Positions 19,491-50,703 of a DNA stretch of 64,000 nucleotides are shown here, piece by piece (the first letter of the stretch is position 1; each line of letters starts with the position of its first letter). Source of the stretch: Mytilus trossulus (lineage: Eukaryota); NCBI RefSeq assembly GCF_036588685.1, contig NC_086381.1, positions 61,566,001 to 61,630,000 on the forward strand. Direction: 5' to 3'. The notes under the pieces were generated by a model. The model did not search any database, was not told the origin of the DNA, and saw nothing but the letters and a program-made list of their open reading frames with translations. The translations under genes and the position numbers were made by a program.

Positions 19491-19549
19491 TCTCCACAGG
19501 AGTGCACGTGTCTAGGATCTCCCTGCACTCTAAGGTAAAAAAAATTCAG

Positions 19550-25669: not shown

Positions 25670-26785
25670 AATAGTAATAATAGTAACAATTTCTATAGCG
25701 CCCTATATAACAATAAAATCACTCTAAGGCGCTTTACATATATATATATACATGATAAAAATATAATAAGTTAACCACAAAACAAAATGAAATAAAAAAT
25801 GTTATGTTTAAAAGAACTAAAAACGTATATATGAAAGATATATGAACATAAATTATTATATTGATAGAAAAATAAAAGAATTAAAATCAATAATAAGTAC
25901 CAAAAAAGATATTAAAACATAGAAAGCGAAAATATATTTAAAATTTAGCAGAAAGATTATAATAAATAATTGAAATGGTCATGAAAACTTTTGCTAGAAT
26001 AAAAATTGTACGAAGAAAACAAAAAACAGAAATCACAGCACATTTTCAAATAAAATTAAAGGAATAAGAATTAAGATAACAGCTTATTAAACGCAAGTCT
26101 GTAAAAATATGTCTTCAATTGTTTTTTAAAACACTGAACAGATTTAGAGTGACGAATTTGTACAGGTAGACTGTTCCATAGGGTAGCGGCAGCACGATTA
26201 AATTGTCTTTCACCGTACGTTTTTGTTCGGACATGTGGCAGTTTAAGTCTAAGGCTGCCCTCTGATCGTAGTGCCTTAGTTGTTGTTTGGATATGTAATA
26301 GTTCCTGTATATAGTCCGGGGCAGTTCCTTGCAGTGCCGTGTACGTATAGACAAGGATTTTGAACTTTGGCCGGAATTCAACAGGGAGCCAGTGCAGTCC
26401 AGCGAGAATAGGTGTAATGTGTTCTCTTTTCCTAGTTTTCGTAACAAGACGGGCTCCAGTGTTCTGAACTCTCTGTAACCTTTCAATTTGACACTTGTTA
26501 ACGCCGAGGAGTAAACTATTTGCGTAGTCAAGTCTGGAAGTTACAAGGGAATTAACCAGAGTTTTAAAAGCATCCGTAGAGATGAAATGTCGGATTCGTC
26601 CAATGTTGCACAGATGGTATTTACACGATTTTACGATAGACGCAACTTGTTTTTCCATGGTAAGACGGCTGTCAAAATAAACACCAAGATTACGTACCGA
26701 TGTGACACTATTGATTACATTTTCACCTACTTTAAGTTGGAAAACAGGCATGTTCTTCGACTGATGTTTCGATGAAAAGACGAGT
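25670..26785 (-). mobile_element. 5'-truncated L2/Crack-type (CR1 superfamily) LINE: RT C-terminus, 3' UTR and tail
   Basis: ORF 26071-26751 encodes VRNLGVYFDS..LVTSRLDYANSLL..HITPILAGLHWLPV. The 3' end has an AGCGCC...GGCGCT stem followed by a TAT/TAC short-repeat tail. Confidence 0.9.
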
Positions 26786-28837: not shown

Positions 28838-29151
28838 ATAGTTATCAAAGGTACCAGGATTATAATTTTTAGAATTCGCCAGACTCGCGTTTCGTCTACA
28901 TAAACTCATCAGTGACGCTCAGATCAAAATAGTTATAAAGCCAAATAAGTACAAAATTGAAATGCATCGATACCCAAAATTCCTTAAAATGACTGTATGG
29001 CTAATGTAATTTATACCTGGGAGAAGAACATCCTTAGTTTTTTTTCGAAAATACAAAGTTTTTTAACAGGAAATTTATGAAAACGACTATATAATTGATA
29101 TTCGTGTCAACACCGAAGTGCTGACTACAATGTACTACTGGGCTGGTGATA
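28838..29151 (-). mobile_element. Retrozyme/Penelope-type repeat, near monomer length
   Basis: Reverse-strand homologue of 10741-10903 that extends further 5'. Confidence 0.75.
28877..28918 (-). ncRNA. Minimal type I hammerhead ribozyme
   Basis: The minus strand reads GCGTCA-CTGATGA-GTTTATGTAGAC-GAAAC-GCGA-GTC^TGGCG. Core intact, stem II fully paired. Confidence 0.85.
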
Positions 29152-29416
29152 ACATGATCACTTACTTAATAATATTATTTTCTAAATATAGTATTTCCGG
29201 ACAGTGAAATAGTCTTGACTGAATTAAGACTTTGATATCACTAGAGAATTATGTCTATATTTATAATACTATACTTTCAATGTGAATCATTGCAAATACC
29301 TGTATCACATACATGTATTTTCTTAGATGACCTAAAATTACCATTGAACCTGACCTAGATGATTCACCTTAAGCAAATATATAAGGTCTAAACCAATGAC
29401 TTAAACAAATATATCT

Positions 29417-29880
29417 AACAAGAATGTGTCCACAGTACACGGATGCCCCACTCGCACTATCATTTTCTATGTTTAGTGGACCGTGAAATTGGAATAAATT
29501 TTTAATTTGGCATTAACATTAGAATTATGTTATCAAAGGGAACATGCACACTAAGTTTCAAGTTGATTGGACTTCTACTTTATCAAAAACTACCTTGACC
29601 AAAAACTTTAACATGAAATTTGCACTATCATTTTCTATGTTCAGTGAACCGTAAAATTGGGGTCAAAACTCTAATTTGGCATTTAAATTAGAAAGATCAT
29701 ATCATAAGGCACATGTATACTAAGTTTAAAGTTGATTGGACTTCAACTTCATCAAAAACTACCTTGACCAAAACTTTAACCTGAAGCGGGACAGACGGAC
29801 GGACGCACAGACGGACGAACGAACGGAGGCACAGACCAGAAAACATAATGCCCCTCTATTATCGTAGGTGGGGCATTAAA
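29417..29880 (+). mobile_element. HINE/DTC84-like non-autonomous element with two ~168-bp internal repeats
   Basis: AACAAGAATGTGTCC head, duplicated GCACTATCATTTTCTATG unit, GGAC/GACG microsatellite and terminal ATGCCCC...GGGGCAT hairpin followed by an A run. Confidence 0.8.
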
Positions 29881-30119
29881 ATAGGAAAACAATAAACTTA
29901 CTCTCTTTTTTCAAAGTAATTGTCATAGCATGGATTCCTGTAAATAAAATATATTTTTTTGTGAAGAAAGTGAAAAAAAGTCAAAATACTTGTAACTATT
30001 CTTTTAAAATTTGAACTTGAAAACAATCCTTTAATTTATTAGTAAATTTAACGAAAAAAGGCAAAATCTAGAAATGGAGTGATCATTTTGGGCGTCATTT
30101 ACGGAATAACTGTAATATT

Positions 30120-30242
30120 TTTCTCTGTCTAGTATGAAAATATAACATAACAAATGTGGTGCACACATAATTACCAGTGAAGCGGGTTATTTTTAATGTG
30201 TGCACCACATATTTGATATTCTTTCGAATAGACAGGAAAAAC
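30120..30242. repeat. Foldback element fragment
   Basis: TGTGGTGCACACA ... TGTGTGCACCACA inverted arms, with further outer pairing (CTGTCTA/TAGACAG). Confidence 0.55.
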
Positions 30243-31096
30243 AAATAATTTTAAGGCGCGGTAATTCATGAGAAAAGGTTGGTGACGTTACAGTCACATG
30301 GCAGACTTATGTTTATGAGATGATAGATAAACACTTTCAGCCATTCAAATGATGTATTACATCCAAAATTAAATTATATTGCTATCATAGTCAAAATAAC
30401 TTTAAAAATTGATTTGTACACCGTTTACATCTTTACAAAATGGTTTTCTTTTCTTGAGAAGTATGGGCATATATACACATATAGATCATATAATTTTGCA
30501 ACTTAAATATCTAGATTAGATCATTTTGCAACCTGAATATCTAGATATATATCATTATTTTTATTTTTTTGGAATAAGCAATGATTGAATTTGACGAATG
30601 TTCCCCGACACTGCACTATGTTGTTAGTGCTCTGAAACCAGCGACAATAGGGTTTTGATTGAATTTCAATCAATTTTTACCCAGAAAAAATAACTTGCAA
30701 TTCTAGCTAAGACTTATCAAAATCAAATACAATTTTATCAAAGCATACTCAGTAGTTTTTTCTGAAAAGAATAGAATGATTCTATTTTGGATATTTTCTA
30801 GCAGAAATCCAACTGGAGGTACTCGTAAGAGCACACAAAACTGATAAATTACATGTTATAACTGAAATTGAATGGATAAGTATTTTAGTGTATGTGGACT
30901 TCCTTGTATAGGAATACAAATGTACTGCTATCAAACAATTGTCTTCCCTTACTCTTAATACACCAACATTTTTTCGAACGTAGTGACCTTAACTAATAGA
31001 CATTCCCTTAAAATATTAGCCGCTGTAAAGCAAACTCAAGAAGAAAAAAAAACATGACGAAAGAATGTATACAAAGTAACATGCACTCACAAACAT

Positions 31097-31382
31097 GTTT
31101 AACCCCGCCGCATTTTTGCGCCTGTCCCAAGTCAGGAGCATCTGGCCTTTGTTAGTCTTGTATTATTTTTATATTAGTTTCTTGTGTACAATTTGAAAAT
31201 TAATATGGCGTTCATTATCACTGAACTAGTATATATTTGTTTAGGGGCCAGCTGAAGGACGCCTCCGGGTGCGAGAATTTCTCGCTACATTGAAGACCTG
31301 TTGGTGACCTTCTGCTGGTGTTTTTTTATTTGGTCGGGTTGTTGTCTCTTTGACACATTCCCCATTTCCATTCTCAATTTTA
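31097..31382 (-). mobile_element. Abundant dispersed non-autonomous repeat (HINE-like)
   Basis: Contains CCTGTCCCAAGTCAGGAG, the reverse complement of the CCTGACTTGGGACAGG-type motif shared by several repeats in this window. Confidence 0.6.
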
Positions 31383-33516
31383 CTAAAAGGTTAATTATAA
31401 TAATTATTGGTTATTAATTAAAAAGACCAATTCATTTTACAACTGTTTTTGGAAAAGTTTTATTAACAAATGGGAAATCATAGATAGCTCTAAATAAGAT
31501 TAAAACAACACTCAAATTTAAACTTCAATGCATATGTTATGAAAGGATTTAGGACACTTTTAGAAATAATTAAAATTTGAAATAAAATAGAGCTAATTAA
31601 AATAAAAATTGTATGTTTCAAATTTATTAAGTCAGTTAAAAGTAAACAGAATATAAAGTCAAATAATTCATTGGCACAAGAAAATATAACAAAAAGAAAC
31701 TACAATCAAAAGAATTTATGATTCATAAGAGTAACAGACATTAGATAAGATACAAGATCATGCTTAAAATAGAAGTCAAGAATCTTGATTAAAGGTTAAG
31801 TAACAGCCTTTAGAAGTTGATAGGTCGACGGACAGATGTATGTCGAATTGATTTTACAGCCAAGGTTATAACCATACTCACAGAATGTGTAGATACTACA
31901 GCATCATGAATATTCAGTAATACATTTAGGCACACAAGATTGTATAAATAACCAATCAAAAAGTTTAGATACGAAGATTGGCGTACACAAGATATTAATT
32001 AAAATTTAACAAATCTTTAATTATCAATTATAATGAAGATCAAAAATTGAAATTCTTCCAAAAATATTATTTTATTTAATTTAAGAAATAAAAGTCCAAA
32101 TGCTTTTCAAAAACAAATAAATACATTTTGCATATTATGAAGCAATAAATGTTTTGGCAACACATTCCATCATTACAAAAGAGGCTCAATCTTGTCTGGG
32201 GAACAGGAATGTCGGGTAATGAGTAGTGACTATAAAAGCAAATATAAGTCTACTGCCCGTACATTACATTATAATCCTTGTTCCAACCAGCAAATTGAGT
32301 TGTCTTATTTATTTCATTAAAAAGGTAAGTTATATAATGTTAATTAAAGTAATTTAATAAAATAAATTAATAGCAAATTTATAGGAAATAATTCAATAAA
32401 TATAATAAGTTTAATTCGAGCAATATTTGAAATAGAAATATATTTGTTATTGTCAAATGATAATCTTATTGTTAATCTGTATGATTTATGCACTGTAATA
32501 TTTTACGATCAAAAAGAAAAAGAAACATTACATTACATTACATTACAATCCTTGTTCCAACCAGCAAATTGAGTTGTCTTATTTATTTCATTAAAAAGGG
32601 TAAGAAGGCGCGAGTCCCACTCTCGCTGCCAAGCAAGTCCACAACAACGACATGTAGTCCCCAAATGTCCAAACATCCTTCTACCTTAGAAGAACTCAGA
32701 AAACGAGAGAAGGCAAAACAACATCGTGTTATCAATAAAGAAAACAACAAAGACAACCCATAATCACAACATCGTAACAAGTGACAACCATGTTCAGTTT
32801 TCAACAACAATATAAGAAAATCACGTCACAACACATACAGTGGTTTTGAAAGAAATGTTATCAATTCTCCTTTCAATGACTAACTACTATCACAACAGGT
32901 AAAGTGTCCGGCTAGGATCTTGTTTTTCAGAGTGATTTGGTCCTTTTTTGTCGAGTGTAGTTCGGGCTTTTTCGGGTGATAAGACATGCGATAAGTTCAA
33001 TTAACGGATATTTTGTAATTATAAGTGTTTTTAACATTACTACCCATCTTATATTGAATACTTTATATGTTTTGAGCAACAAAGAAGCACAATTTCCTGG
33101 TATTTAATCAAAACAACCATTGTTTGTTATTGTACGGGTTCTTTCGAGAACAGCTTTGAAATCGTCCGGGTTTTTAGACAAATGGTCCGGGTTTTTTTTA
33201 CAGAAAATTTAAATAAGAAAAAAGGTATTCTAGACTTTTAAAGATGTCTTTTTTCTAAGTTTTAACTGTAATTAAGTGAAGGACAATATCATATATTCCC
33301 AATAAGTTATCAAAAGCATATCAAATGGATCTTCTTTTCAATTTGATGCAAATTTTCTGTTTGGAAAGCGTTATACAACAACTTGCCAGTGTTCATTTAG
33401 AAATTACATGATCCTTAACAAAACGGTGTCTAGAAAATAATGCAGGCCACTCATATTCATTCTAACTGCATTTCATGCTACTTTAGATTTTACAGTTAGT
33501 GATATTTCTTGTGGTG

Positions 33517-33661
33517 AACTCTAGAAAATTAATAAAAGAAACCTATTAATAAATAAACTCCGGTAATTAATAAAAAACACCTATTAATAAATGACCTCCG
33601 GAAATTAATAAAGAAACTATTAATGAATGAACTCCGGAAATTAATAAAATAAACCTATTAA
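33517..33661. repeat. ~38-bp minisatellite, about 4 copies
   Basis: Unit approximately AACTCCGGAAATTAATAAAGAAACCTATTAATAAATG. Confidence 0.75.
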
Positions 33662-35227
33662 CAAAAAAAAACTAAAAAAAACACCACACACACCTAATTC
33701 ATCCTATTTAAATCAAATCAACAATGAAATGAATAGTTCATTGGCCTAAATATGATAATTTAGCAATGATAGACAAATAAAAAATGTGTATATTATATGC
33801 TATCACCAGCTAACGCATAATCAGACTTCTCCTCACAGTTGTAGCATTTAGTAATTTTCAGTTTCCATTTCGTAAATAAAAAAATAAATAATACAAGATA
33901 CAAGAAAAATAATAAATGAAATTATACTCTTTTAAAAACAAACATATAACTCATCTCATATTACGTTTCAATTCGAATTATCTATGCGTGTGTTCCGGAC
34001 CATATGAGAAATATGACCATATGCGTATACTCATATGGTATAAACTGTACACGTATGGTCGGACCATATGATAGATATAGGAAGATGTGGTATGACTGCC
34101 AATGAAACAAGTCTCAATCCAACTAACAATTCATAAAAGTAAACCATAATAGGCAAAGGTACGGCCATCAACACGGGGCATTGGCTCATAACGAACAACA
34201 AGCTATAAAGGGCCCCTAAAATTACTAGTTCAAAACCATGCAAACGGGAAAACTAACATTATGATATATATATAAACAAGAGGCTTTGAAGAACTGAGAA
34301 GATTTTTAAATCATCGTTAGCAAACATGATGAAACAAATGTGTAAAATTGTCTTTAAAGAGCAATAACTCCTTAAAGGGTCAATTCACAATTTTTTGTAG
34401 ATACTAATTTGCTGAACATCATTGTTGCCTACAGTTTATGAAATGTAATAATTTTATAGTTCAAAGGCTACTCAAAACAGCACAAGTTACAAGTTGAGAC
34501 ACATTGACTTTCAATTAATTGTCTTAATATGGGTGTATCTGTTTTTGTATGTTGCTAGTATTAATTTTAAACTCTTTATTATATTTACATGTTTTTGTTA
34601 GTTAGTAAAACAGTTGAACTCTCGTTTAGCAGTTTATTAAGACATTTTTGGAAGTTATCTTCCAAGTCGACATTTTGCTATTCAGTAAAAGTTATCCCAT
34701 GAGGTCCAAATACTTATATGGTTTGGAACAGTCACATTATATTGTTGACATCACGGATATATACTTTACATGCATTTTTTAAGATGTGAAAAAACTAATA
34801 TACACAAATGAACGGTATGTTTATAAAAAGCAAGTGTTGATACACCATGTGCCTTGAAAGTACTTAATTTGACCCTTTATTTTATAGTTTTTAAACGTAA
34901 ACACATAATATTTTTAGCTATTAGAAATGTGTAAAATCACTTGATAAAAAAAAGAACTCATTCGAAAAAGCCCGGACCGCTCTCGAAAAAACCCGGACAT
35001 GAAAAATTGAATTTAGTCTCTAAATGTCGTTTTCAGTGCAATAACTATAGTTGTTTTTATTAAAGTGTCTGTATATCTAAGAATATATAGATTCTATTTA
35101 TGCATTTTTGTCGACATTTGCATTGGTATGTGTAAGAAAACGGTTCTCATCTGTATTTTGGAACAAAAGCATTTTAAGGCTAAATTTAACTATTTTAACG
35201 AAAAGCAATGTCAGAATGATACTATCT

Positions 35228-35462
35228 TTATATCTCAAATACTAACATATCATGTATAAGTGGTGCTCCATAATAGTACTCTGGAGGGGGTCTTACGTGT
35301 GGTACTCTTTCTCTCATAAATGAATGCTTTGGAACTCTTGCAGGTGGCAGAGGTCGTCTTTCATAAGGATTTGGATATGTTCTCAATCTGTATCTATCAA
35401 AAACCCGTATTCCCATTGGTGGTGGAGGCAGGTATTTAGGTCTTGATCTTTCGTTATACATC
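35228..35462 (-). CDS. Chimeric gene exon 6: Pro/Tyr/Arg-rich, Lark/RBM4-tail-like
   Basis: tatatag| acceptor, phase 2, in frame. Encodes PPPPMGIRVFDRYRLRTYPNPYERRPLPP..RPPPEYYY. May instead splice at AT|gttagt (~35246) to a further exon. Confidence 0.65.
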
Positions 35463-36084
35463 CTATATACGCAATCAATTAATAGCAAATCTTTAATTCA
35501 ATCTTTTGTAAACACTTTTGAATTATACATGTGGTTTTAAATGGTGGCTTAAGTGTGTAGTGTCTTGAAATTTCCGTAAATTGAGTATGCAAAAAGTAAA
35601 CAGTAAAAAGTAAAAGTAAAAATATGTGCTATAAGATACTTTTTTTTATTATTTTATGGTCTTTTCTTGTCAATATTTCTGTTTACATTTTCATAAATCA
35701 CATCAAATTATTAATGTTCTTTGGAACTACAATTTCAATTTTAGTCCTTTTTTCTTCTACTCTTATACAATTTCTTATGAATTCAAAGTATGTCGGCTGT
35801 TATGATTTGATTGTACTTTATGTGTGTTATCATAACTAGAAACTTTCATTTATGTTAACTTTATTGCCTTTTCTACTAAATACACATATAAATATCATAC
35901 AAATTCACACCAGGTCACAAATAAATCCACATTTTATCTAACATGTAAAATATCTTATTGATGAATAAATAAACAAATGTCTTTCTTTTTTATCCCTGCT
36001 GAACACAATAATGAGTTTTGCTCAATCTATTTTTCAGATGTACTTCAATTCAGTAAAGTTAAACATTTCTATATCAGTGCACTA

Positions 36085-36735
36085 AGACTGTACATTGAAT
36101 GTATGGACTGTACATTGTGTGTATGGACTGTACTTTGTATGTACAGTGGAGATCATTTCTAACCTCTCATTAAATCTGTCAGGAGAACTGTTCTAGAACA
36201 GTACGTAGAACTGTCAGCCTGACACCTTTTAGTCAGTTCTAGGTTAGAACTAATCTAGATAGAACTGATTTGGTCTGATTTGGACAGTTCTACCTAAAAC
36301 TGATCCTGACAGTTCTACCCTAGAACAGTTATAGACAGTTCTAGCTAGAACTGACCAAATATTTGGTCAGTTCTACGGTTAGAACTGATGTATAGATTCT
36401 ACGTCTAAAACACTTTTTTCATTAATATCCCATAATTCATCCACTGTACAATTTTCGTTTGAACATTTGTCAAAACAGAATCTTAAATGAATGTTTATCC
36501 AATGCAAACAAGGCGAACTTCGAACAGTTCTAGGGTAGAACTGTTCTAGGAAAGGTTAGAACAGTTCTATGACAGATATTCTGACAGTTCTAATGAGAGG
36601 TTAGAAGTGATCTCCACTGTATGAACTGAACATTGTATGTACGGACTGTACATTGTATGTACGGACTGTACATTGTATGTATGGACTGTACGTTGAATGT
36701 ATGGACTGTATATATGGACGGTACATTGTATGTAT
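36085..36735. repeat. 20-bp minisatellite (TATGGACTGTACATTGTATG), split by a MITE; further copies at 38059-38156
   Basis: Tandem units on both sides of 36144-36619. Confidence 0.8.
36144..36619. mobile_element. Tc1/mariner-type MITE with 28-bp TIRs, TA TSD and internal AGAACTG/CAGTTCT subrepeats
   Basis: TA|CAGTGGAGATCATTTCTAACCTCTCATTA ... TAATGAGAGGTTAGAAGTGATCTCCACTG|TA. Confidence 0.85.
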
Positions 36736-37754
36736 CATTTATAATCGTTATGGATAATTCTGGCTAAATTGACGAGATGGTGCAAACGTATATGTCTTTT
36801 TACGTTTATATAATACAACACTTTTTTCATTAATACATCATAATTCATCCACTGTTCAATTTTCGTTTGAACATTTGACAACATCTCGTCAATTTAGCCA
36901 GACTTATCCATGACGATTATAAAGGTCTGTTCTTGCTAAATCCTGTGTCGCTTTGAAGGTGTCATGATCCTCAGCCTACGCAATGTGTTACTGTAATTTG
37001 AATTTCAAAATGACTGAGAGACGTTTAATTCGACACACTGCAGGTCAACTCCACCATATAGAATCACATGACTTTGATAATCAGTAAATTCCAGCGAAAA
37101 ATATCTTATAAGTCCAGAATTGTCGTATAAAAATTAAATAGTAGTACACAGGAAATGGCAAAGGTCACCATATTCACGAAGTCTAGTCTGATTAATCATT
37201 TAAAAAAAAAAAAGTCCGAGCAAAAGGCGTTTTCTTTTATTAATCATTCAATATTCATTATATTTTTAGACCACCCATTTCTCTCATCTCTATTTTTTTG
37301 GCCCATTATTCTCTAATCTTCATTTGTTAAGGGCATTATTCTCTAATCATTTAACCCCATCCAAACCCTCATAATACAACACTTTTTTCATTAATATGCC
37401 ATAATTCATCTACTGTACAATTTTCGTTTGAACATTTGTCAAAACAGAATCTTAAATGAATGTTATTCCAAGGCAAACAAGGTAAAAAACGATTAAAATT
37501 CCATAAGTTAAAAGCATAGTTATAATTATGAAGAGACAGTTAAAAACGGGGAACGAAGAAACATAAACAATGATGTTTCCTATGCAATCTTATAAAAATG
37601 TTCTCCGATGAGTTGGATAACCTCCTATTCACTTCGATATTTGTACATTTAACGTTTGATCCGTAAAAAATATAGAAAATCTGCTATCATATAGCAAAGT
37701 AATTGGAAATGATTTTATTTCATCTAAATTCTAAAGTGTCCTTACTGCAGAGAC

Positions 37755-38058
37755 GTCATTTAGAACTGTTTTACAGTCCTGACTGATTTAGTCAGTTCTG
37801 CAAACAGTTCTACGGTTAGAACTGATTTGTACAGTTCTACCTAGAACTGATTTAGACAGTTCTACCCTAGAACTGATCCTGACAGTTCTACTTAGAACTG
37901 ATTTAGTCAGTTCTACCTAGAACTGATTTAGTCAGTTCTACCTAGAGCTGATTCTGACAGTTCTACTTCGAACAGTTCTAGTGTAGAACTGTTCTAGGAC
38001 AGGTTAGAACAGTTCTATGACAGATATTCTAATGAGAGGTTAGAAGTGATCTCCACTG
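37755..38058. mobile_element. Right half of a second copy of the same MITE
   Basis: Same subrepeats and right TIR ending CTCCACTG|TA. No left TIR. Confidence 0.75.
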
Positions 38059-38162
38059 TATGGACTGTACATTGTATGTATGGACTGTACGCTGTATGTA
38101 TGTACTGTATGTATGGACGGTACATTGTATATATGGACTGTACATTGTATGTATGTACTTAC

Positions 38163-38186
38163 AGACCCTTGTTATAATCTTCTAAC
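38163..38186 (-). CDS. Chimeric gene exon 5 (24-nt micro-exon)
   Basis: ctcacag|GTTAGAAGATTATAACAAGGGTCT|gtaagt, phase 2-2. Completes the knuckle-like segment as W-LEDY. Confidence 0.65.
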
Positions 38187-38580
38187 CTGTGAGTAAACAA
38201 AAAAAACATTTGTTATTCAATTGACATTATTTTACATTTTCTTTTATGTTCAAAGTGTCATTTTTCTTGTCTCTTATTTGCATGTGAATTCAACTTATAT
38301 TTACTTTCAATTAAAAGTATTAAAACCTTAAAACTGAGAGAACAAACTGATACATTTGTATATTTTATTGTTATAAATAAGCCAGCTTTTTCACATTTGA
38401 ATATAACACTTTGTTCATGACATGTCCAATACAAGTTATGCTTTTTTATCATTGCTAATGGCTAAAGGGTGATCTTTTAAATGCTTATATACACATCATT
38501 TGAACCCTGGTGATGACAATCTCAATGGATTTTTTTTCAGATCTCCTTATTCTTATCATATGTGTAAATTATAAACATAC

Positions 38581-38660
38581 CATTGGCCTTCTATTTCACA
38601 TTTGTTGCATTTGCCTTTACCATCCATGCCGGGTTTCTGTCGGACTTTACTGTGTGACAA
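38581..38660 (-). CDS. Chimeric gene exon 4: Lark/RBM4-like pre-knuckle linker and degenerate CCHC
   Basis: ttttgtag| acceptor and TG|gtatgt donor. LSHSKVRQKPGMDGKGKCNKCEIEGQW resembles Lark S.[24 protein letters not shown]. Confidence 0.75.
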
Positions 38661-39008
38661 CTACAAAATAAAAATGAAAATTAAAGTTAAGCAAAGATTT
38701 GAGAGCTTAATTCGCCTTTGATTAATACTAAAACAGACCATATTAAACGAAGACAGTTATGAGTTACTGCGGCTTGAATAAATGTGAAAAACACATGTTA
38801 AATATGTTATTTCATTTTCATTTTCAGTATATTTTTAGGAAAGAATTAGTATTAAACTACTTTAACCCCGCTCATTTTGCATGTGCTGTTCCAAGTCAGG
38901 AATACTTTCTTATTGAGTTGCTAAGCATCTTCTTTGTTTAAGAAATAATATTTTTCCCTTGAATCAGAAGGCATGAACCTAGCTATTTGACCAATTGCAA
39001 AGTGAATA

Positions 39009-41155
39009 ATGTAAACCGGGAAATTTTCGCGGTAGTTTAATTTTCGCTATTTTCGCGGTAGCAGTTGGTACGCGAAAATAAAACTACCGCGAATATTTAA
39101 CTGGAAAAGATGTGTTTCCTACCTATATCGAAATATAGTCATTGGCACTCATACCACCTCTTCCTATATCTATGAACAAAATCTACTTAAAGCACATGAT
39201 CGGGAAAAGTATATGTCGACGACAAATGTATACCAACATTTTTTTAATTGACACTTCTTTGCCTACGATTCTAAAAGTTTATATACAAAAACATTTTGTA
39301 ATAAAATATTTGTTAATAATAATGACAATGGATTAAAATTATCTGAAGTCTAATTCCGACACTAATAAAATTGTTATAAAAACAACACACATTACAGTTA
39401 GGTAAAGTACACCTGTAAATCATTTAAATGTCGATTAACACACTGTAGCTGTCACATAGATCAAAGGATTTATTGATTAACTTTTATCCCTGCGGCTTAA
39501 AAAGCGCTACGAATAAGGTCATTCTTTGTTTCTAATTGTTTTTGTGTTTTTACTACCCAGCGGGCGTGCAGTGGTTTAATAACGCTTAATCTCATGTCAA
39601 TTTCAAATTTATCCAGTTTTTTTCTTTTTTTTGAGAAATTTTGCCACTTCGTCTGCATACCAATCTTGGAACTTTGTCCTTAAAATATCTTTATAAACTT
39701 TATTGACACGTAAATCAAGGGGCTGTAACTGGTCTGTACATCCAGCTGGAACATACACTACTTTAATGTTGGCTCTGTGTAGAGCATCTAAAACGGATGC
39801 ATGTCTATGAGCACTAAACACATCAAATATCGCTAAAGCGGGCTGTTTTAAGGGTAAATCAAGTTCATCACGTTTATCCGTTACATACGGCACAAGCAAA
39901 TGTTCTGTGTAATGCAACATAGTGTCAGTATTGCTCCAATGATTTTCCGAATGGTAAATATTCCATGACTTAGGAAACTCATATTTTGGATGACATTGTG
40001 CAGTTGTCCCGGCATAAATAATTTGTGGAGGAAGAACACCAGACTTAGATATTGTTAACAACGCAGTGATTTGACGTTTATCGTTTATGCCAACAATATT
40101 AACCTGCTTACTGCCTTTAGCGTCCATTGTCCAGTCACCACCGGGAATAAGATTTACACCAGTTTGGTCCCAATTGAAAATTAAATCATCTGGAATATTA
40201 TTTTCCTCGACACATTTTTCAATTCTATCAATGTAATCCTGTTTTGTTTTTTCGAAGTCTTCTGGTTGGGACCTTGCTGCCTTCGTTCCCTTCCGTTTTG
40301 TGTATCCCAAACGATTTAACACAGATTCAGACCAAGTCTTGGTTAAATCTAAGGTTTCTAAAAGTTCAGAATCATGATATTTGAGTATTCCTTTAGCAGA
40401 CGAAATAACTATTTGATTATTGACTATTCCACCGAATTCTCGTATACTTTTGATGTAATCCAACAATTCTGCATCGTACTTCCCAAGGAGAAGAGGTCTA
40501 CCGCGATCTTTTTTAGGAAGTTCGGCTGCATTTTCAAATTGTTTATGTAAACCACGTCTCATGTATGAAGACTTTATGCTCCGAATAGTTGATTCGTTCA
40601 CAGGACTACCAAGATCAGTTGTAAATTTCCTTGCAGTATTTTGAACACCATTTTCAATAGCATATTTTGCCATTTTAGCACGAACCTCAGGTGAATAATT
40701 GTTGTAATTTCCCCGTTTACGTTTTGTACCACCTTTAGCAACGGGTGAATTATCTACCAAGATATTTTCAACTTCTGTATTTGCACTTTGAAATACCGGA
40801 TTGTCTGTTTTCGGAAGTAAGGGAGGCCTCGGTGATGAAGTTTTAATCAGAAATTTATACATCTTTCCACTACGATAGCTTAAGAAACAACTAATGCATT
40901 TAGATTTTATTTATATTTACAAATGAAAACTATTAACTCGTCCAAACGATTTATTGATCGATATCAGATTAAGTTACTACCGACATACAAGTATAATATA
41001 GTTCACTAATTAACAGTACATAAACAAATGCGCAGTTTTAAAATTTAAAATATTTTTTCAGGTCATCGGAAAAACGCGAATTTAAAACGACGCGAATCTA
41101 GATTGATTTGGCAAATCGCGAAATAAAGACGGCGCGAAAATTTCTCGGTTTACAG
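39009..41155 (-). mobile_element. pogo-superfamily DNA transposon (DD35D, Passer-like), 2147 bp, with TIRs and TA TSD
   Basis: TA|ATGTAAACCGGGAAATTTTCGCG ... CGCGAAAATTTCTCGGTTTACAG|TA, plus subterminal TTTTCGC repeats. Confidence 0.92.
39609..40862 (-). CDS. pogo transposase (HTH + CENP-B HTH + DDE_1); C-terminus lost by a frameshift in a poly-A run
   Basis: NWDQTG, FDVFSAH and QPLD, with 35 residues between D2 and D3. The conserved tail IDMRLSVIKPLHARWVV...F*AAGI continues in another frame below 39609. Confidence 0.9.
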   Translation of the reverse strand: MYKFLIKTSSPRPPLLPKTDNPVFQSANTEVENILVDNSPVAKGGTKRKRGNYNNYSPEVRAKMAKYAIENGVQNTARKFTTDLGSPVNESTIRSIKSSYMRRGLHKQFENAAELPKKDRGRPLLLGKYDAELLDYIKSIREFGGIVNNQIVISSAKGILKYHDSELLETLDLTKTWSESVLNRLGYTKRKGTKAARSQPEDFEKTKQDYIDRIEKCVEENNIPDDLIFNWDQTGVNLIPGGDWTMDAKGSKQVNIVGINDKRQITALLTISKSGVLPPQIIYAGTTAQCHPKYEFPKSWNIYHSENHWSNTDTMLHYTEHLLVPYVTDKRDELDLPLKQPALAIFDVFSAHRHASVLDALHRANIKVVYVPAGCTDQLQPLDLRVNKVYKDILRTKFQDWYADEVAKFLKKKKKTG

Positions 41156-44100
41156 TAGTCTCATTGCAATGATACAATACTTGTTGTTCTCGGTGAAGTT
41201 CATTCATTAGGAATTTCAAATTTCTCCTTGAAAAAGCAACCGTTCATTGATTATTTCTGCTCCATATAAGCAGGCCACAATTTTGATGGCGAGATGATGA
41301 TAGTATTTGCCAAATAATTTTGAAAATCACTACACTCACCGGCCGACTGAGTATTTAGCGAGGTCAAAAAGCTATCAAAATTCTTATTTGGGAGATAAAT
41401 TGTGATTAGATAGTGATTCTCAAAACAACCAAGGACTTATACTGTTGACTGTTAAATGAAATAAATACAACGGCAACTTTAAACATCCTCGTATTCAACT
41501 TTCAAATCTATCAAAACACTGGGACTGAGCGTCTATTTGAATAATATATTTGCGATGATTTTCAAATATCCTGTACCAAGTCAGGGAAATGGCCAGTGTT
41601 ACATTATAGTTCGTTTCTGTGTGTGTTACATTTAAATGTTGTTTTTCTGTTATGTCGTAGTTCCCCTTTTTATATTTGATGTGTTTCCCCCAGTTTTAGT
41701 TTGTAAACCTGATTTGTTTGTTTTTTCTTAATGGATTTATGAATTTTGAACAGCGATATACTGTTGCATGTTTTCATCTCTAATGAGGTCGTCTGTATTA
41801 CATTAAATTATTATGAATTTATAAAGATTTTCTTAATTCTTTTATTTAGTGTAATAAATAAGTTTTAATTTTAAGGAATCATACATGAGAATGAGGTCAA
41901 GGACAATGGAATATGGCAGACGGAAATTTCATTACATAAGATATCTTTATGCAAAGTAAGAAGCATCCAGGTCTCCTAGCTTATCAAATATTTTCTTTTT
42001 TTAGATTTTTGTACAAGTTAACAGACAAAGGACGACAAACGACGGAGGTCAAGTGAAGAGAAAAGCTCGCTTAGCCCATTGGACCAGATGAGCTAAAAGC
42101 GAAATGTTTCTGGTGATTTTTAACAGATGCCTTCACTTCTTGTTAAGTAGTTAAAATAATATTACACTTTCAAATTTCTAAAATATTTTCATTGAGATCT
42201 GCTTTTATGTGTGCTTCTTTTATACAAAGCATCTTACTATTTGTATCAAAATCAGGGGAAAACTTGAGATCAAATTCATATAAACCAAACAGGAAATACA
42301 TTTACACCTTACAATCATTCAATACACTAAATAAAGTAGACCTATATCATTCAGTATAAGAAAAACAGACCAAAACGCAAAATCTTTACTATAACCACTG
42401 AACCATTAAAATGAGGTCATGTTTCAGATGACACCTGTCAATTGAACTAATACACCTTACAGCTTAGTCCTTCCATACAACAAATAAAAGAGACCTATTG
42501 CTTATAGTATCTGAGATATGGACGTGACAACCAAAACTTAATCTTGTTCACTGATCCATGGAATGAAGTCAAGGACGTGTGAAAACTGTCTGACGGGCAT
42601 TTAGGACCTTGCAAGGTAGGCTTAAACCAAATATAGTTATTCTATTACTCATAATAAGAGAGAAATTAACATAACAAAAAACTAATAACTTGTTTTAAAG
42701 AAGTCACTGAACCATTAAAATGAAGTCATGGACAGTGAACATCTGACAGACGTAAACTTCGTAATACCAGGGATCTATATACAAAGTATGAAGCATCTAG
42801 GTCTTATCTTATGATAATAAACTAATTTCTGTCCAAGTTTGGTAAAAATCTAGAAAAGTTTAAGAAAGTGATTAAAATTTTAAAAACTTTAACAACAAAG
42901 AAAATATTTGAGGACAACCACACCGATGACGGCATGTAGGATCACTATGACTTGCCATTATGAGAAAAGTCGCAGGCTTGACATTTGGTCCTAAAACTTG
43001 GAGGGCAATGCATTCTATGAGAATTCATTCGGGAAAGATAATAAACCTTCTCAGATTCCTGACCTGAATATGATTATATATAGGTCACATAACAGGTCAT
43101 TGATGGTGTTTTTTTATGAAGTCAAAGGGAATGTACAAATGGTTAATATATTACATTTTAGGATATATGTTAAGTGATAAATTGTGTAATAATTCAAATA
43201 AACATAAATGAATCATTCAAAATACAATAATATAAAACATAGAACAAATACCTCAGACAGATTTTACAAAATTGAAAAATACTTTCCCTTCATTGCCTTC
43301 AAAATAATTATAAAAAAGTCAATAAGGGCAATAACTCGTTTTGTTTTAATTTGCTTTGTAGGCCATTTTTGTTGACAGGCTGGATCCATTTTGAAAACTA
43401 AATATTACAAGGAAGATTTTAATCAAGTTTGGTTTTATTTGGCCTTGTTGTTTGAGAATAATTCTGTAAAAGTTAACAGATGACCTATATCATTGATGTC
43501 ATAAGCCAGACGTACTATCTGTTATGGCTGTAAGATTCATATATTAAGTGTTTTCTAAAGGAGGGTCTTCACCGGTTCCAGACTCTTGAATATCATATTG
43601 GTCCACTTCAATCCCATGTGACTTAAATAAAAAAGCTGAATTGTAATTCAAACATTTGTACACGATCATCATGTGCGTTTGATAATATATGTGTCAACAA
43701 TTAATCATTGCCAAATTTTTGTATTTTCTGTAAATGACCAATGATTGGATAAATCTTGAATTATGAATAATGAATCTAAAATCAGACGTATTTCATATTG
43801 ACAAGGTTGGTTTTGTGATCTTTAAAAACAGTATCTTTAAATGCTGTAGATACGTTCTGCTCTTATATGCGTTCAATGTCTCAATATGGCAAAATGAAGT
43901 CCATGACAATTGATTGATTGATTGATTGTTGGTTGCTTTACGCCGCATTAGCACAAAAAGTCATGACAATTGAAAGCCTTTGAATAAAATTGCTTTTCCA
44001 AAATAGTCATCATATATCATGTATATGAACAGCAAGCTCTTACCTAAAAGTATTTGGGTATTTATCTTTGCTATTACTAACTCCTCTTCTATAATTTTAA

Positions 44101-44214
44101 TAGATCTTATTTGCAAGGGCTTAAATGTCATTAAAAAATTTGACACAATATCTCTATATTGCTAAAAAAAAAATCAAAAACATTCATACAGCAAAATACA
44201 AATAAACCGACTAC

Positions 44215-44507
44215 CTTTGCAATGTCATCATTCTGGTCTTTTTCTGTCTTAATCTTTTTTATCAGTCCACCTTTCTCTTCAGTTTTTCGTTTAGATGTTT
44301 TTGCAGTCATTTCATTATTATTGGGATCTCCATCTTCAGCTGAATCAGAATCAGATATAAGAATAACTGTATCTTCTTGTTCCATCTTATTATAGTTCCT
44401 CTCTGTATTCTCTTTATCATCAGATATAAGTATAACTGTATCTTCTTGTTCCATGTTATTAGATTTATTCTCTTTATTCTCTTTATGATTTTGATCTTCA
44501 ACATTAT
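44215..44507 (-). CDS. Chimeric gene exon 3: acidic linker with two SIM-like motifs
   Basis: tttgcag| acceptor and AAG|gtagtc donor, phase 1-0. Encodes duplicated MEQEDTVILISD(D/SDS). Confidence 0.75.
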
Positions 44508-45265
44508 CTGCAAAGACGACATTAATTTAACATGTTTAAAACAGGCTATAATATCAACTTTGATTTTGAATTAATAAATTCATGTTATTCATTTCAATTT
44601 CAGTTGAGACTGGTGAATATTTCTTGTCAACATCTTTACAGCTAGTAAGATAATTGAAAATAATTTGGAATTCAATACCCTCAATTTTGTTCAAGTCATA
44701 ACTGGTTCTTAGTTGATTTTAAACCTCGAATTGCGCCACTTTCAGAACAAGTCATGTAGTAGTGAAACTCGCAGTGTGATTCAATTTTATCTATGAATTT
44801 ATGACCACTACAATGACAGCCAGAAAGATAAGAGGTCATTATGTAAAGTAATGCAACTTGAGCATTCTGAAAATAGATTAGTGTTAGTGATATTTTTATT
44901 GGAACTTGGAAGTAGCAATATAAATAAGTAGCTGCAATAAAAATAAACAATTATATGTTGTAGTTGTATATATGTTTCCCATTCAATGTAAACATTCAGC
45001 AGAGGTAACAACAAATAAAAGAATAAGTGTTTTAATGTCATGTATTTGGTACTTATATTTGGTAAAAGGCTATCAAGAGCTATGTGTGTATTGTTATATG
45101 TGATCTGCATGAATCAAAATGAAATGTGTGTATCAATCACATAACTGGGATGGGGGAAATCAGTTGACGAAGCTATGAACGGTGTATACAAATAAGAATA
45201 AATATGCATATCACTGTATATCTTTATATATTGAAAACATGCATACACATACATTATTATCACAG

Positions 45266-46645
45266 TTAGTTTTCGGTGTCTGATTCTTCATTATCACTTT
45301 CGTCAGAATCCTGAATGATATCATCGTCAAGACCACCATCCTGACCACGATCACAAATAATGTCTATACCTATCTTACCTGATAGAAAGTTACAATAAAT
45401 ATCCCAATGTGTTAAAACAAACGGGTGTGTTTTAGGTTTAAGAACCCTTTCAGGTGTTCGGTTGTGTGTCTGCTGTTCAGACGAAACAGGGCGGTCAACG
45501 TGTTCGTTCCAGTCCAGAATTCCGAGACCTGTCCTGATTTCATATGTTTGTTCACCATAGTCTATCCTTTTGTGTACATATAACAACAGTGTATTATGAT
45601 AGCTTTCAATATAATGTGTGTTCAAACAATGAATATACTTCTGTACATATATAAAGATGTTATTGCGTTATCAAGAAGAACTGCTGCCACACCACTTCGA
45701 ATCATTGTTCGTGATAAAGTATTTCAGATTTCAGTTCTGCACCTTGATGTTGGATGGCATCGATCATGGCTGTTCTTGTAATTGTACTATATTTTCCAAT
45801 GAAGCAATGAATCACTGAACAGATCCATTACAGTTCTTCATTGCCCAATAAGTATAGGTCTTCACCCCAGCAGTTTTGTCAGCCAATTCTGTGTGCCAAG
45901 CTATTCCGTGAATTTTCTTTGGTCCTTTAGCTACCTTTCCGATTGCTTTTCTAACTTCCTTCCCAGCATGTCATGTATCAAGGCAGTCAATTACACCGGG
46001 TTTGTCTTTTTCAATAAAAAGAACTTATCGAGGAATTCTTGTGATGACTGTGAAAACGCACGATGACTGTGAAAACGCACCGTCACATTTTTTGTACCTA
46101 AATCTTCATAGAGTTTTTTCGTTCCGTACAATTTATGCTTTCGTGAACTTCGTTCTTGTCTTTTTGTCACATATTGGTAACTTAAGACTTTGTGTGTTTG
46201 CTAACCCAGGGCAGTTATATCGGAATTGAAACTGTTCTTTCGGCATGTATGCCGTGCATCCGTCATGATATTAACTGAACTGTCATTGACATCGGCATTT
46301 GTCACATTGATAAATTGGACAGTCTTCAACTTTTCTTCAGATATAACATCGCTAATTAATAAATCCCTAAAGTATTTAACGGATTCACCTTATATTACCG
46401 CAGTTTGAATCCGAAAGCGCTTACTTGAAATGTCAATTTCCGAAAAATCGGAAAATCTCTCATATTGAATATTGAGAATTCCACTGCACATGTAGGAATG
46501 GAACATCTTGTATTTAATATAATAATCCCAATGAAGATTGGTTGAAGAACTCCAATACAAATATCGCTAGTATAAGTCCTGTGGCAATAATGTCATCCTT
46601 GATCACAAGTTCAGTCATGTGACCACAATGTTGGTTATGATTGGT
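45266..46645 (-). pseudogene. Decayed DDE transposase, Kolobok-like
   Basis: Fragments YWSSS, IMTDARHTCRKNS (~46249-46266), DT*HAGKEVRKAIGKV..WHTELADK..YWAMKNC and TH YIESYHNTLLLYVHKRIDY..RTGLGILDWNEHVDRP. Multiple stops. The superfamily call is inference. Confidence 0.65.
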
Positions 46646-46712
46646 TGGCCTATTATTTCAAATCAGTTTGAAAACGTGCACAATATTGAAAAGAGTATAA
46701 CATAATTTGTAG

Positions 46713-46971
46713 TCATGGATGAAAATAAGTCTCCACTTTCAGTAGAAAGTTCAGGAGTAAGACAGGAGATATACAAACGTTTTTGGAAAATTATGGATAA
46801 TTTGGGTGTTTGGTACTCATAAGATTATCTTGACAGGAAGAAAATATAGGAGATGGTGAATGGATTGTGTATCAGAGACGGGAAATAATGCCAGCTTGTG
46901 TGTTAGATTTAGCTAGATATAAATACCCTATTCCTAAAGATATCCAAAATATTGGACATCAATGGGAATAA
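46713..46971 (+). pseudogene. Decayed accessory ORF (KolX / P2X7 C-terminal-like) divergent from the transposase
   Basis: RQEIYKRFWKIMDNLGVW...RREIMPACVLDLARYKYPIPKDIQNIGHQW fits the R..hP.CV...hR..YP.P....G pattern. One stop and one frameshift. Confidence 0.55.
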
Positions 46972-48927
46972 TGTAACTGTGACCTGTGATTCTGACAAAT
47001 TATATCAGAAATTGTATTATTGTAACTGTAATAAAAATTCTTTTCTAAACATACAAGGTTAATTGTCTTTTCTGAATCTTTTACTGTTATCAGATGGAAT
47101 TCCATAACATCATCACATCACAGCTTGCAAAGCAATTAACTCTGACCTAAAACCACGTCACACTGTGTCTGCAAGTGATCAACAAAATTCATTCCGGACT
47201 GAAGTTTTCGGGGTTTAATAAAAATAATTTCCAAAAATTGATTTAGACATTTGATAAGGATGGTGATTATGCAGTGAGATAATAGTTGCAAGTTAAGTTC
47301 TTCTGTAATTCCTTGTTTAAAAAAAATGGAATCTTACTTTTGTTGATCAAGAAAGATCCCTGGGACAAAATGAAGGGAAATTAAGAAATAAATTTCCGGA
47401 TCACATGAAATAATATTTTTATTATAAGGGCCAAACCAGTCAAATCATACAATAACTGGCATAACTCCAATTTTAAAAATTACTTTAACATCATTCATAT
47501 TTTAGAACAAATATTAGATTCCTGCACCTTTCACTACATGCACTAATAATGTAATATTCGTGAAAAGTATACCATCATTATGTAAGTTAACGTGAATATC
47601 TGGAAATGTTAATGGATAGGATTATTAGAATGGTAATTTAGATTTCAAGTCAGAAACATAGGGTTTTGATTGCATTTCATGTAATCTTTACCCAAATATA
47701 ACACAACCAAAATTCATACTTGATCTGTGTTGTATGGTAATAAGCAAAGTGTATAAGTTTCATAACATTTGGTTGAAGCAAATTACAGTTAAAGAACAGA
47801 ATCGAAATATTTAGCAATTTATTTATTTGTAAAGGGGCATAACTCTTTAACAGTAAAAGTGACGCCACCAAAATTTGAACTCGATCTGTTTTATGTGTTA
47901 ATGAGTATTGTGTGTCATTTCATTTGGTTGTGAAAATCTAAAGTTAGAGAACGGAAACGAAAAATTCAGCAATCTGTCCATTTGAAAAGGGGCATAACTC
48001 TAGATTGACACCAACAAAATTCGAACTTGACCTGTGTTTTGTAGTAATTAGCATTGTGCATAGTTGTTATAAAATTTGGTTGAGGCAAACTAAAGCTAAA
48101 TAAGGGAAACCAATTGTGGGACGTACGGACGGATAGACGGAAGACGAACAAGGGTAAAACTTAATGCCCTCTGTTACGGCGGGGGCTTAAATTAAAAGCC
48201 ACATATCCCTTACATTATTTACAAGAGATTATAGAAAATCACAAATTCACCACTCTCTCATCCGGTTTAAACAGCAAAATAATTAACAAAAAACTCCAAT
48301 TTTTGTAATAAATACATAAACTTCAAGATATATGGTTGTGTTGTCAAAATGTTCAAATAAACATTATACAATGTAACAACCATTCATTTGGCTTTAAAAT
48401 TAGAAGATCAATTCATAAGGAAAATCATGTACTAAGTTTCAATTTGACTATACTTCAACTTCATCAACAACTATCATGATTAAAATATTAACCTGAAGAG
48501 GTAGGGATGGAAAAATGGACAGACGTTGCGACGGTACCAACACGAACAGACAAAAAATATACTGTCCCTCAACTAGTCAATTAAAGGTGGGGCTTAAAAA
48601 GGCGGACAAACAGGTGTGAATACTGTTTAGACCAAGATTTTAGGTAAAGTTGAAATATAACAACCATACATTAAGGTGATTAAAAAACAGTTCATCAAAG
48701 TAATCAATATTTTTTTGTTAGCAATTTTGATTGATTGATTATTTGTGCTTTTAATTACTTTGACCAAAATTGCAAAATCCTCAAGGACGTATTTCTGTCC
48801 CTTTGGTATCTTTCGTCCCTCCTTCATTGGTAACAGACGCAGGTGTCCCCTGAGAGAACCACAACCTTTACCAGGAAAACTTAAATGACAAGTTCTTTAA
48901 TATTCAGATTCAGTATGCATAGCTCAC

Positions 48928-49203
48928 CTTTTACTGATTCAGTTTTATCATCATTAGGCTCTAACACTTGTTCAGTTTTATCATCATGAGGCTCTTGTTC
49001 ATTGTTATCATCATGAGGCTCTGGTTCAGTTTTATCATCATGAAGCTCTTGTTTGATAGTAAGAGCTTCCCAGAAATCTGATCTACTATATTCTGAACTG
49101 TCACGTTCTTTCTTGACAAGAGGTTTAGTTTCATCAAAGGTGTGTCCCTTCTGATGAGTAATGTGTAAACCTAACTTTAATGATGCATCTCCTGCTAAAT
49201 TAT
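48928..49203 (-). CDS. Chimeric gene exon 2: acidic linker with four EPHDDKTE-type 27-bp repeats
   Basis: tttcag| acceptor and AAG|gtgag donor; 276 nt open reading frame, phase 1-1. Confidence 0.75.
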
Positions 49204-49477
49204 CTGAAATAAATGATTTAAAATAATGCTACAAAAAGAATACAGCATAATGACATTAAGAGTGAGGAAGACTTCATTTAAATAAAAGCACCTCAGTCTA
49301 TGATTATTGTAATTAACTTGTAAATTAATTTTGCTTGAGAGTTTACTCACTGAAAAATAAACAGAGCCAACGAAAGAAAACATCTGGCAATCCAAAACAG
49401 TAGGGCAGTTGTTTGACCAATAATAACAGATTATAAATGTAACAATTTTGAAATCTTTATTCACATAGTATTACATA

Positions 49478-49752
49478 GATATAGGAAGATGGGGTGTGAG
49501 TGCCAATGAGACAAATCTCCATCCAAATAACAATTTAAAAAGTAAACCATTATAGGTTAAAGTACGTCCTTCAACACGGAGCCTTGGCACACACCGAACA
49601 ACAAGCTATAAAGGGCCCCAAAATTACTAGTGTAAAACCATTCAAACGGGAAAACCAACGGTCTAATCTATATAAACAAAACGAGAAACACGTATATATT
49701 ACATAAACAAACGACAACTACTGTACATCAGATTCCTGACTTAGGACAGGTG
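49478..49752 (+). mobile_element. Abundant dispersed non-autonomous repeat (HINE-like), intronic
   Basis: GATATAGGAAGATG...GCCAATGAGAC...CCTGACTTAGGACAGG; homologous to 34075-34272 and 998-1256. Confidence 0.7.
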
Positions 49753-49846
49753 CAAAATGTATATTATGTAGTTCTTGGTTGTCTAATAATAATACAAATC
49801 AAACCAGTTAATATTGTATATTGTATTGGTCAAAGTCTGCACTTAC

Positions 49847-50153
49847 TGCTGATATTAGATTTATGAGATATTCCACAAGAAGGACAGAAGCTGGTACCAG
49901 AAGTCAAAACTGTGTTGCACTTTTCTCCATTATCAGTAGTACCAGAGCAAACTATGTCTACAAAAAGAGCAGGGTCAATTCTCCCTCCACAGCTGCAACA
50001 GTATTTAAATCCTTCCGTTACAATATTTTTACAGGATGGACATAGTGTTGTCTTAATATCAGGAGCTGTCATCTGCACTTCAGTACCACACTCTGTACAG
50101 AATTTGACTCCAGCTGGAATCTCTGCTCCGCATAATTCCTTTTGGCATTTCAT
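49847..50153 (-). CDS. Chimeric gene first coding exon: three zinc-ribbon (DZR-like) repeats, similar to the N-terminus of molluscan RNF213-like proteins
   Basis: ttttcag| acceptor at 50173, ATG at 50153, A|gtaagt donor. Motifs C..C..KFCTECG, CPSC..KYCCSCG and C..C..SFCPSCG. Confidence 0.8.
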
Positions 50154-50703
50154 CTTAAATGGTGACCTTCCATCTGAAAAAACCAACAGATTTATATCTC
50201 TCTTAATCTTTTTTAATTTTTAATATAGTTTCAAGTCTTAGAATGCCGTAACTTATGTTAAGTGTTGATAAAAACTTTCTAATAAAAATATTTCAAGATA
50301 TATGTTAATGAAAAGATTATATAATTAAGAAAATAAATCACTGCAAAAATGGCTAGAAACAACTGAACACTAAAAAGTATGCATAAAAAAAGTAGATTTA
50401 TAGTATTTTTTTTTAATATTACCTTATTTTGTATCAACCTGAGGCCAAAAGAGTCGGTATAACTCGCTATTTTCCAAATGACTCTTAGCCATTTACATTT
50501 TTGTTTCATTTCAATATGCATTAGGCTGGAATGTGTTTGAAAGAAAATAGAATTTGACACCTTACAGATCTTATTTTAACCACCTCAACAATAACTGTTT
50601 CAACATTTTATTTATGTACTATCAAAGTTACAGTGTGTCCTTACAGGAACATATATATTAGGTATACTGTTCCCGGGTCCTTATTAGACTCAAAGCAAAT
50701 CAC

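Follow-up and report, generated by a model that had tools for sequence, protein, structure and literature searches.

The 64,000-nucleotide stretch of the Mytilus trossulus genome analysed here (the window; contig NC_086381.1, positions 61,566,001 to 61,630,000) carries on its minus strand a gene whose first exons, with three zinc ribbons, are related to RNF213, an immune and antibacterial ubiquitin ligase, and whose last exons derive from a Lark-like gene. This RNF213–Lark chimera is a real Mytilus gene family that originated at the DNA level; the process is already known, the case is new. The window copy is a damaged member of the family and appears to be split in two. Overall, we regard a chimeric gene family in Mytilus, represented in the window by a damaged allele, as the likely reading of the locus. 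A targeted literature search at record level found no description of an RNF213–Lark chimera in Mytilus, and the database names of the chimeric proteins are all automatic (myb-like protein X, uncharacterized, lark-like). Coordinates are in window numbering, positions above 64,000 falling outside the window on the same contig, C9; C14, C5, C3 and C1 are further contigs or chromosomes of the same genome.

Gene structure, copies and parents

A preliminary description of the window had joined six exons into an open frame of 1215 nt (404 aa), and these exons do stand at the claimed coordinates with AG and GT splice sites. As a gene structure the set is incomplete: an exon here called 3b, two 3' exons and one 5' exon had been overlooked. 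Exon 1 does not start at 50153, as proposed; it begins at 50173 and is preceded by a coding exon outside the window. Nor does exon 6 end at the 35228 stop, the annotated model splicing at 35247 to 29937-29902 and then to 28621-28588. In order of transcription the coding exons are:

64823-64790, minus strand, just outside the window: first coding exon, from database models
49847..50173, minus strand: exon 1, RNF213-like N-terminus with three C4 zinc ribbons (DZR) and an internal ATG at 50153
48928..49203, minus strand: exon 2, acidic low-complexity linker, RNF213-like, with short repeats
44215..44507, minus strand: exon 3, RNF213-like linker with an internal duplication and a basic KRK...KKIK patch
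43512..43621, minus strand: exon 3b remnant, overlooked before; TAA at 43546-43544, donor and 3' half deleted at 43512/43511
38581..38660, minus strand: exon 4, Lark linker that follows the RNA recognition motif (RRM) and first part of a degenerate zinc knuckle; 80 nt in all four loci (C9, C14, C5 and C3)
38163..38186, minus strand: exon 5, remainder of the degenerate knuckle; 24 nt in all four loci
35247..35462, minus strand: exon 6, Pro/Tyr/Arg-rich Lark tail; new donor at 35246, read-through would stop at 35228
29902..29937, minus strand: exon 7, overlooked before, Lark tail
28588..28621, minus strand: exon 8, overlooked before, last coding exon with the stop at 28590-28588, then Lark-derived 3' untranslated region (UTR)

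Each of the six exons first described is beyond chance: orthologous exons that use the same splice sites are present in C14, in C5 and in either C3 or C1. Exon 1 encodes the three zinc ribbons first described (Pfam DZR, E 6e-13; Zn_Ribbon_1, E 6e-11), and the other exons have no Pfam match. The basic patch of exon 3 is a putative nuclear localization signal, by its similarity to the consensus. The C-terminal exons are indeed Lark-derived, with the C-C-H-C ligands of the knuckle degraded to C-C-Q-Y, and Pfam detects no RRM in the chimeras; RRM exons are present only at C3.

The chimeric copies are three, collinear through exons and introns, on C9 (the window), C14 and C5. Used as genome queries, exon 6 matched C14 and C3, and exon 1 matched C5 (81%), C1 (69%), C14 and, more weakly, nine further places; an oyster Lark query recovered the tail at exactly four loci, with matching RRM exons at C3 only. 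The Lark-like gene at C3 is intact: it has a single RRM and a complete knuckle, and its five 3' exons agree with exons 4–8 of the chimera in splice sites and phases. Canonical RBM4/Lark proteins have two RRMs in their N-terminal half, as outlined in PMC3602429, and a parent of this kind had been presumed when the linker was read as following a second RRM; the parent at C3 has one, and by its sequence belongs to the single-RRM bivalve "lark-like" type (oyster XP_061172863.1 and relatives). The chimeras share with these proteins and with RBM4 the post-RRM linker, the position of the knuckle, the Pro/Tyr/Arg tail and five exons with identical phases, and differ from them in lacking the RRM, in a knuckle that reads C-C-Q-Y in C9 and C14 and C-W-H-Y in C5, and in a tail shortened by in-frame deletions. 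The knuckle ligands are degenerate in all three copies, and Pfam zf-CCHC has no match in the chimeras.

The parental introns and phases are kept relative to the C3 and C1 exons, which upholds the earlier proposal of a DNA-level fusion with introns retained; that the chimera joins RNF213-like 5' to Lark-like 3' exons and is lineage-restricted is likewise borne out. Intron identity is 91.2% for C9–C14, 84.5% for C9–C5 and 80.5% for C5–C3, and the corresponding Jukes–Cantor distances (0.093, 0.174 and 0.226) indicate that the fusion shortly preceded the first duplication. At C5, where the chimeric frame is open over 471 aa, all four RefSeq isoforms cross the fusion junction; the frame at C14 is open over 484 aa. 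The M. galloprovincialis protein VDI11539.1 contains an intact 496-aa chimera, which crosses the junction and agrees with the window models at 310/317 and 129/137 residues. Fused to its front is an esterase-like (PHB-depolymerase-like) gene that lies 10–26 kb upstream on C9 on the same strand, at about 75–91 kb in window numbering, and VDI11539.1 is on this account a syntenic orthologue. Chimeric protein forms were retrieved only from these two species by searches that were word-limited and cluster-collapsed, so that absence from other species is weak evidence. In the C14 copy (53826k-53844k), an in-frame 99-nt deletion merges ribbons 2 and 3, and the repeat in exon 3b is expanded.

On the RNF213 side, exons 1, 2 and 3 all have homologous counterparts at C1, and the splice sites agree. 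Farther downstream on this strand come open reading frames (ORFs); all three that were tested match mouse and human RNF213 in a PDB sequence search (E 3e-10, 0.003 and 1e-14); Pfam gave only sub-threshold, unrelated matches for 10 ORFs of this C1 body. In the M. edulis model CAG2216925.1 the ribbons continue into an RNF213 body (E 4e-7), and the model maps along C1 to residue 1290; the contiguity of ribbons and body is thus read from one M. edulis model and the same-strand order at C1. With these Mytilus RNF213-like giant E3 ligases the chimera shares the triple ribbon of exon 1 (69% identity), exons 2 and 3, and the splice sites. It differs from them in having neither the three linker exons that lie internally at C1 nor any of the stalk, AAA core and E3 module (the architecture described in PMC7311170); these last three are absent from all chimeric models, whereas an RNF213-like body is present downstream at C1. 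In mouse RNF213 the N-terminus is disordered and does not form part of the resolved model, according to the structural account in PMC7311170, and an expansion of RNF213 is reported for some bivalves in PMC9993606. The parental loci are unlinked, the Lark parent lying on C3 and RNF213-like relatives on C1. C1 itself was considered as the direct 5' donor and rejected: there is no intron homology, and the ribbons group with another paralogue. In a tree of the first 100 residues (13 rows), the chimeras group with M. edulis CAG2195040.1, with support of 98/96 and a long branch; this protein also has a long linker resembling an RNF213-type exon that is absent from the chimeras.

Relatives of the ribbon exon occur elsewhere. 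In four other Mytilus models the same ribbon exon comes first and the ends are unrelated, namely a doubled ribbon set with a hydrophobic, membrane-like segment, HTH_psq, or a duplicated linker; such models may result from further shuffling or from fused annotations. From C10:38182936 onward, another ribbon exon is followed by same-strand ORFs that by eye resemble the RNF213-like body of C1. Exon 1 also matches seventeen metagenome-derived proteins of 111 aa at 59% identity (E 7e-26); some bear the name "ribosomal protein L40E", and their source is probably host bivalve DNA. A search of the ESM Atlas with exon 1 gave generic DZR clusters (best score 0.86) and no lead.

Damage to the window allele

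Exon 3b is intact in C14 (402 nt), in C5 (210 nt) and in the M. galloprovincialis model. Compared with these, the window exon has a 3-nt insertion that reads as an in-frame TAA and a deletion that took its 3' half and its donor; once exon 3b is counted, the frame across the junction is not open in the window allele. RefSeq splits the locus into two models because exon 3b carries the stop and has lost its donor. The 5' half is annotated as a zinc-ribbon protein of 317–335 aa, all three distinct proteins (four accessions) ending at the exon 3b stop and one of them entering the exon by an alternative acceptor. The 3' model, XP_063398410.1 (164 aa), is a predicted transposon–host fusion that takes its first 35 residues from the N-terminus of a pogo transposase spliced to exon 4; the RefSeq models examined at the 3' locus leave out isoform X1. 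The two features involved are:

39009..41155, minus strand: pogo/Tigger-like DNA transposon of 2147 bp, terminal inverted repeats (TIRs) 21/23 identical, TA target duplication, 417-aa DDE_1 ORF from 40862
40758..40862, minus strand: first 35 codons of the pogo transposase, with which the coding sequence of the RefSeq 3' model opens before splicing to 38660

It is unlikely that the window allele mainly skips the donor-less exon 3b and joins exon 3 to exon 4 across the pogo element, to give a chimera of 404–421 aa. The phase of exon 3b (0-0) means that skipping keeps the frame, yielding 421 aa with exons 7 and 8 or 404 aa by read-through of exon 6, and the exon 3 donor and exon 4 acceptor are canonical; the 404-aa product first described is such an exon-skipping reconstruction and not an annotated product. 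However, the three RefSeq 5' proteins all stop in exon 3b, the tail is annotated from the pogo exon, and AATAAA/ATTAAA motifs lie 105–195 nt past the exon 3b stop. The gene models thus favour the reading in which the window allele probably yields a truncated ribbon protein of 317–335 aa and a 164-aa tail promoted by pogo, skipping from exon 3 to exon 4 (421 aa) being minor at most. Joining of these two exons may even be absent in the window allele while the chimera is intact in the paralogue and the orthologue.

Breakpoint and selection on the frame

The fusion breakpoint, 41271/41270, is common to all three copies, and Lark homology begins at 41270. As had been described, it lies in the intron that holds the pogo element. 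The Lark gene was cut in the intron after the RRM, about 550 nt before the linker exon in C3, and no C3 sequence from upstream of the breakpoint is detectable in the junction intron (six of six comparisons within the shuffled range, three of three controls above it). The two sides of the breakpoint are:

41271..41564, no strand assigned: part of an old dispersed repeat, its conserved terminus coinciding exactly with the breakpoint; present in all three copies
28174..41270, minus strand: Lark-derived segment (introns, exons and 3'UTR), collinear with the C3 parent and broken up by later insertions

The terminus of the old repeat abuts Lark sequence in all three chimeras, with about 3 bp shared with C3. 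It was compared with 17 other loci (14 of 19 non-chimeric matches, chosen mostly for reaching the end of the query, and three earlier loci). Homology stops at the same base in these loci, 14 of which end in the same trinucleotide, and their downstream flanks are unrelated except for one four-locus duplicate. A candidate shared outer 3' boundary at 23354-23651 was rejected as a common high-copy repeat.

A terminus of this kind raises the question of whether the chimera moved to C5, C9 and C14 as cargo of a Pack-TIR or Helitron-like element, which we consider unlikely. The copies contain introns and are dispersed over three chromosomes, the terminus at their internal junction is transposon-like, and multicopy Pack-TIR chimeras are described in animals (PMC8277862). 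Yet a search for outer termini, TIRs or target duplications shared by the copies found none, the outer ends being eroded by insertions; the copies span 20–45 kb and end at different places; and within the fetched loci no convincing inverted partner of the junction terminus was found.

Exon lengths mostly differ among the copies, yet all keep phase (window exon 3b excepted), whereas among 214 intron indels no more than 43 have a length divisible by three. From intron rates, neutral evolution would give a mean of 12.7 stops and about 35 frameshifts, and none of 3000 simulations was free of stops; C5 and C14 have neither a stop nor a frameshift, and even at one tenth of the intron indel rate the probability of no frameshift is 0.03. 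The ratio of nonsynonymous to synonymous rates (dN/dS, omega) over 394 codons is 0.55 (p=0.001, F3x4) or 0.65 (p=0.017, F1x4), and exon 1 has an omega of 0.43 (p ~0.03). An omega of 2.5–3.0 on the stem of C9 and C14 in the tail (free-ratio) is not relied on, its significance being untested and the alignment low-complexity. The chimeric family is under frame-keeping selection, and the neutral simulation is rejected for C5 and C14. This makes it quite improbable that the whole family consists of transcribed but non-functional duplicates drifting neutrally, as might be proposed given that dN/dS is only mildly below 1, that the knuckle and RRM are lost, that the window allele is broken and C14 seemingly truncated, and that dispensable hemizygous genes are numerous in mussel genomes (as reported in PMC7653742): besides the open frames of C5 and C14 and the omega of exon 1, the splice sites are kept in all copies.

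That pogo caused the fusion, or that the junction is a misassembly, can be set aside almost entirely: pogo does lie 115 bp from the breakpoint, inside the Lark-derived intron, but it is specific to the window copy, its TA site is empty in C14, C5 and C3, the junction recurs in all three copies, each on its own chromosome, and a second species has a joined model. The element, whose transposase matches DDE_1 (Pfam, E 2e-9), is a later insertion unrelated to the fusion, and what marks the junction is the end of another, older repeat. M. edulis has a near-identical pogo protein on record.

Several points weigh against a chimeric family with a damaged window allele, or against parts of it. (i) On the RNF213 side, RefSeq annotates the 5' part of C1 as a separate 679-aa gene; and while the search for parental loci yielded the Lark parent at C3 and an RNF213-like relative at C1, the true 5' donor paralogue of the ribbon exons was not found. 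(ii) At the breakpoint, the search for the other end of the old repeat found none and the C1 and C3 regions fetched do not contain the repeat, for which reasons the mechanism of fusion is only inferred. (iii) The Lark tail alone has a dN/dS of 0.62–0.65, not significantly below 1 (p=0.08–0.12), and exonic substitution distances are near the intronic ones (0.066 vs 0.088 and 0.134 vs 0.155); codon-periodic low-complexity exons moreover favour in-frame slippage, which inflates the argument from the frame, though not that from stops. (iv) The first and last exons of C14 were not found in the DNA fetched around the copy, and there is no database protein for it. (v) VDI11539.1 is an imperfect prediction, as it has absorbed the upstream neighbouring gene, and transcription across the junction is a prediction from gene models, which are joined at C5 and in M. 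galloprovincialis and split at the window locus. When the exon 6 stretch was compared with sequencing runs, partial matches came in 18 rows from 10 studies and three organism codes, none recorded as RNA, which is no evidence either way.

History, possible function and significance

The comparison of copies and parents shows a history in several stages. The first exons of an RNF213-like gene (three ribbons and an acidic linker, without the ATPase and E3 body) were joined, phase 0 to phase 0 in the Lark intron after the RRM, to the 3' part of a single-RRM Lark-like gene, comprising its final five exons. The fusion was then duplicated to three chromosomes, C5 first and C9/C14 afterwards; frames were kept while amino acids drifted and the knuckle decayed; and in the window allele exon 3b gained a stop and lost its donor, with pogo inserting downstream. 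DNA fusion, duplication, frame-keeping with drift and damage to the window allele very probably hold jointly. The chance is about even that the fusion was seeded by the old repeat at the breakpoint, through end-joining or ectopic repair in which a transposon end and some 3 bp of microhomology took part; this is suggested because a transposon end sits at the junction.

In the predicted C5 protein all three ribbons are intact; the linker is acidic (net -13) and includes a basic patch, and the Pro/Tyr/Arg tail, which is 22% Pro, is basic (net +10). The chimera product has neither a catalytic nor an RNA-binding domain. An AlphaFold2 model made without an alignment was uninformative (mean predicted local distance difference test score 38.9) and was not used. 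Tentatively, the composition of the intact protein of about 490 aa could suit a non-catalytic adaptor or decoy: RNF213-type ribbons would bind RNF213 partners on a disordered linker, and the Lark low-complexity tail and basic patch would re-address them to the nucleus or to ribonucleoprotein condensates; the protein itself would not bind RNA. A broader picture, in which a selected multicopy regulator displays an RNF213 ribbon head on a condensate-targeting Lark tail and acts as a decoy or nuclear relay in RNF213 signalling, the ribbon exon is recurrently shuffled in mussels and window-type alleles are undergoing transposon-driven fission into two genes with promoters of their own, is doubtful when its parts are taken jointly.

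Other features of the window touch the chimera only by position. In intron 2, a 2.5-kb segment with broken ORFs (44720-47224) stands where C14 has a different sequence; one of its broken ORFs had no Pfam match. In intron 5, a repeat-rich insertion with internal direct and inverted repeats (36141-38061) has no counterpart at the C14 and C5 site, but one elsewhere on C5. Exons of an XK-related gene (5298-8530, plus strand; Pfam XK-related, E 3e-10, 7874-8527) are convergent with the chimera. A frameshifted Gypsy-like long terminal repeat retrotransposon lies at about 12700-21700 (plus strand); its first ORF contains HhH, and the element also has a zinc knuckle, RNase H, and extra PHD-finger and TatD DNase ORFs. 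A 240-aa open frame at 26071-26793 (minus strand) has no Pfam match, and we take it to resemble the end of a long interspersed nuclear element reverse transcriptase.

Chimeric new genes arise in Drosophila by DNA-level, repeat-associated ectopic recombination (PMC2211543), and the cases described there resemble the mussel family in their unlinked partial duplicates with introns, a repeat at the breakpoint, a young lineage-restricted ORF and relaxed purifying selection. The mussel case differs in being from a mollusc, in its RNF213-like and Lark-like parents, in its three dispersed copies and in having one allele split by a stop and a pogo first exon. With Pack-TIR genes such as Ssk-FB4, as presented in PMC8277862, it has in common a young, multicopy chimeric protein family with a DNA-transposon end; unlike them, the mussel unit has one internal element end, and no flanking TIR pair or target duplication was found.

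The RNF213–Lark family is a well-resolved gene birth by exon shuffling in a mollusc, for which the Lark parent is in hand together with a near relative of the 5' donor. A single breakpoint, marked by a transposon end, is shared by the copies, which are three and datable, and there is evidence that selection has kept the frame. The loss or fission allele of the window, with its first exon supplied by pogo, is likely polymorphic. If the protein is functional, it would provide a natural means of learning what is bound by the ribbon head of invertebrate RNF213, and the family a testable example of how dispensable mussel genes originate.

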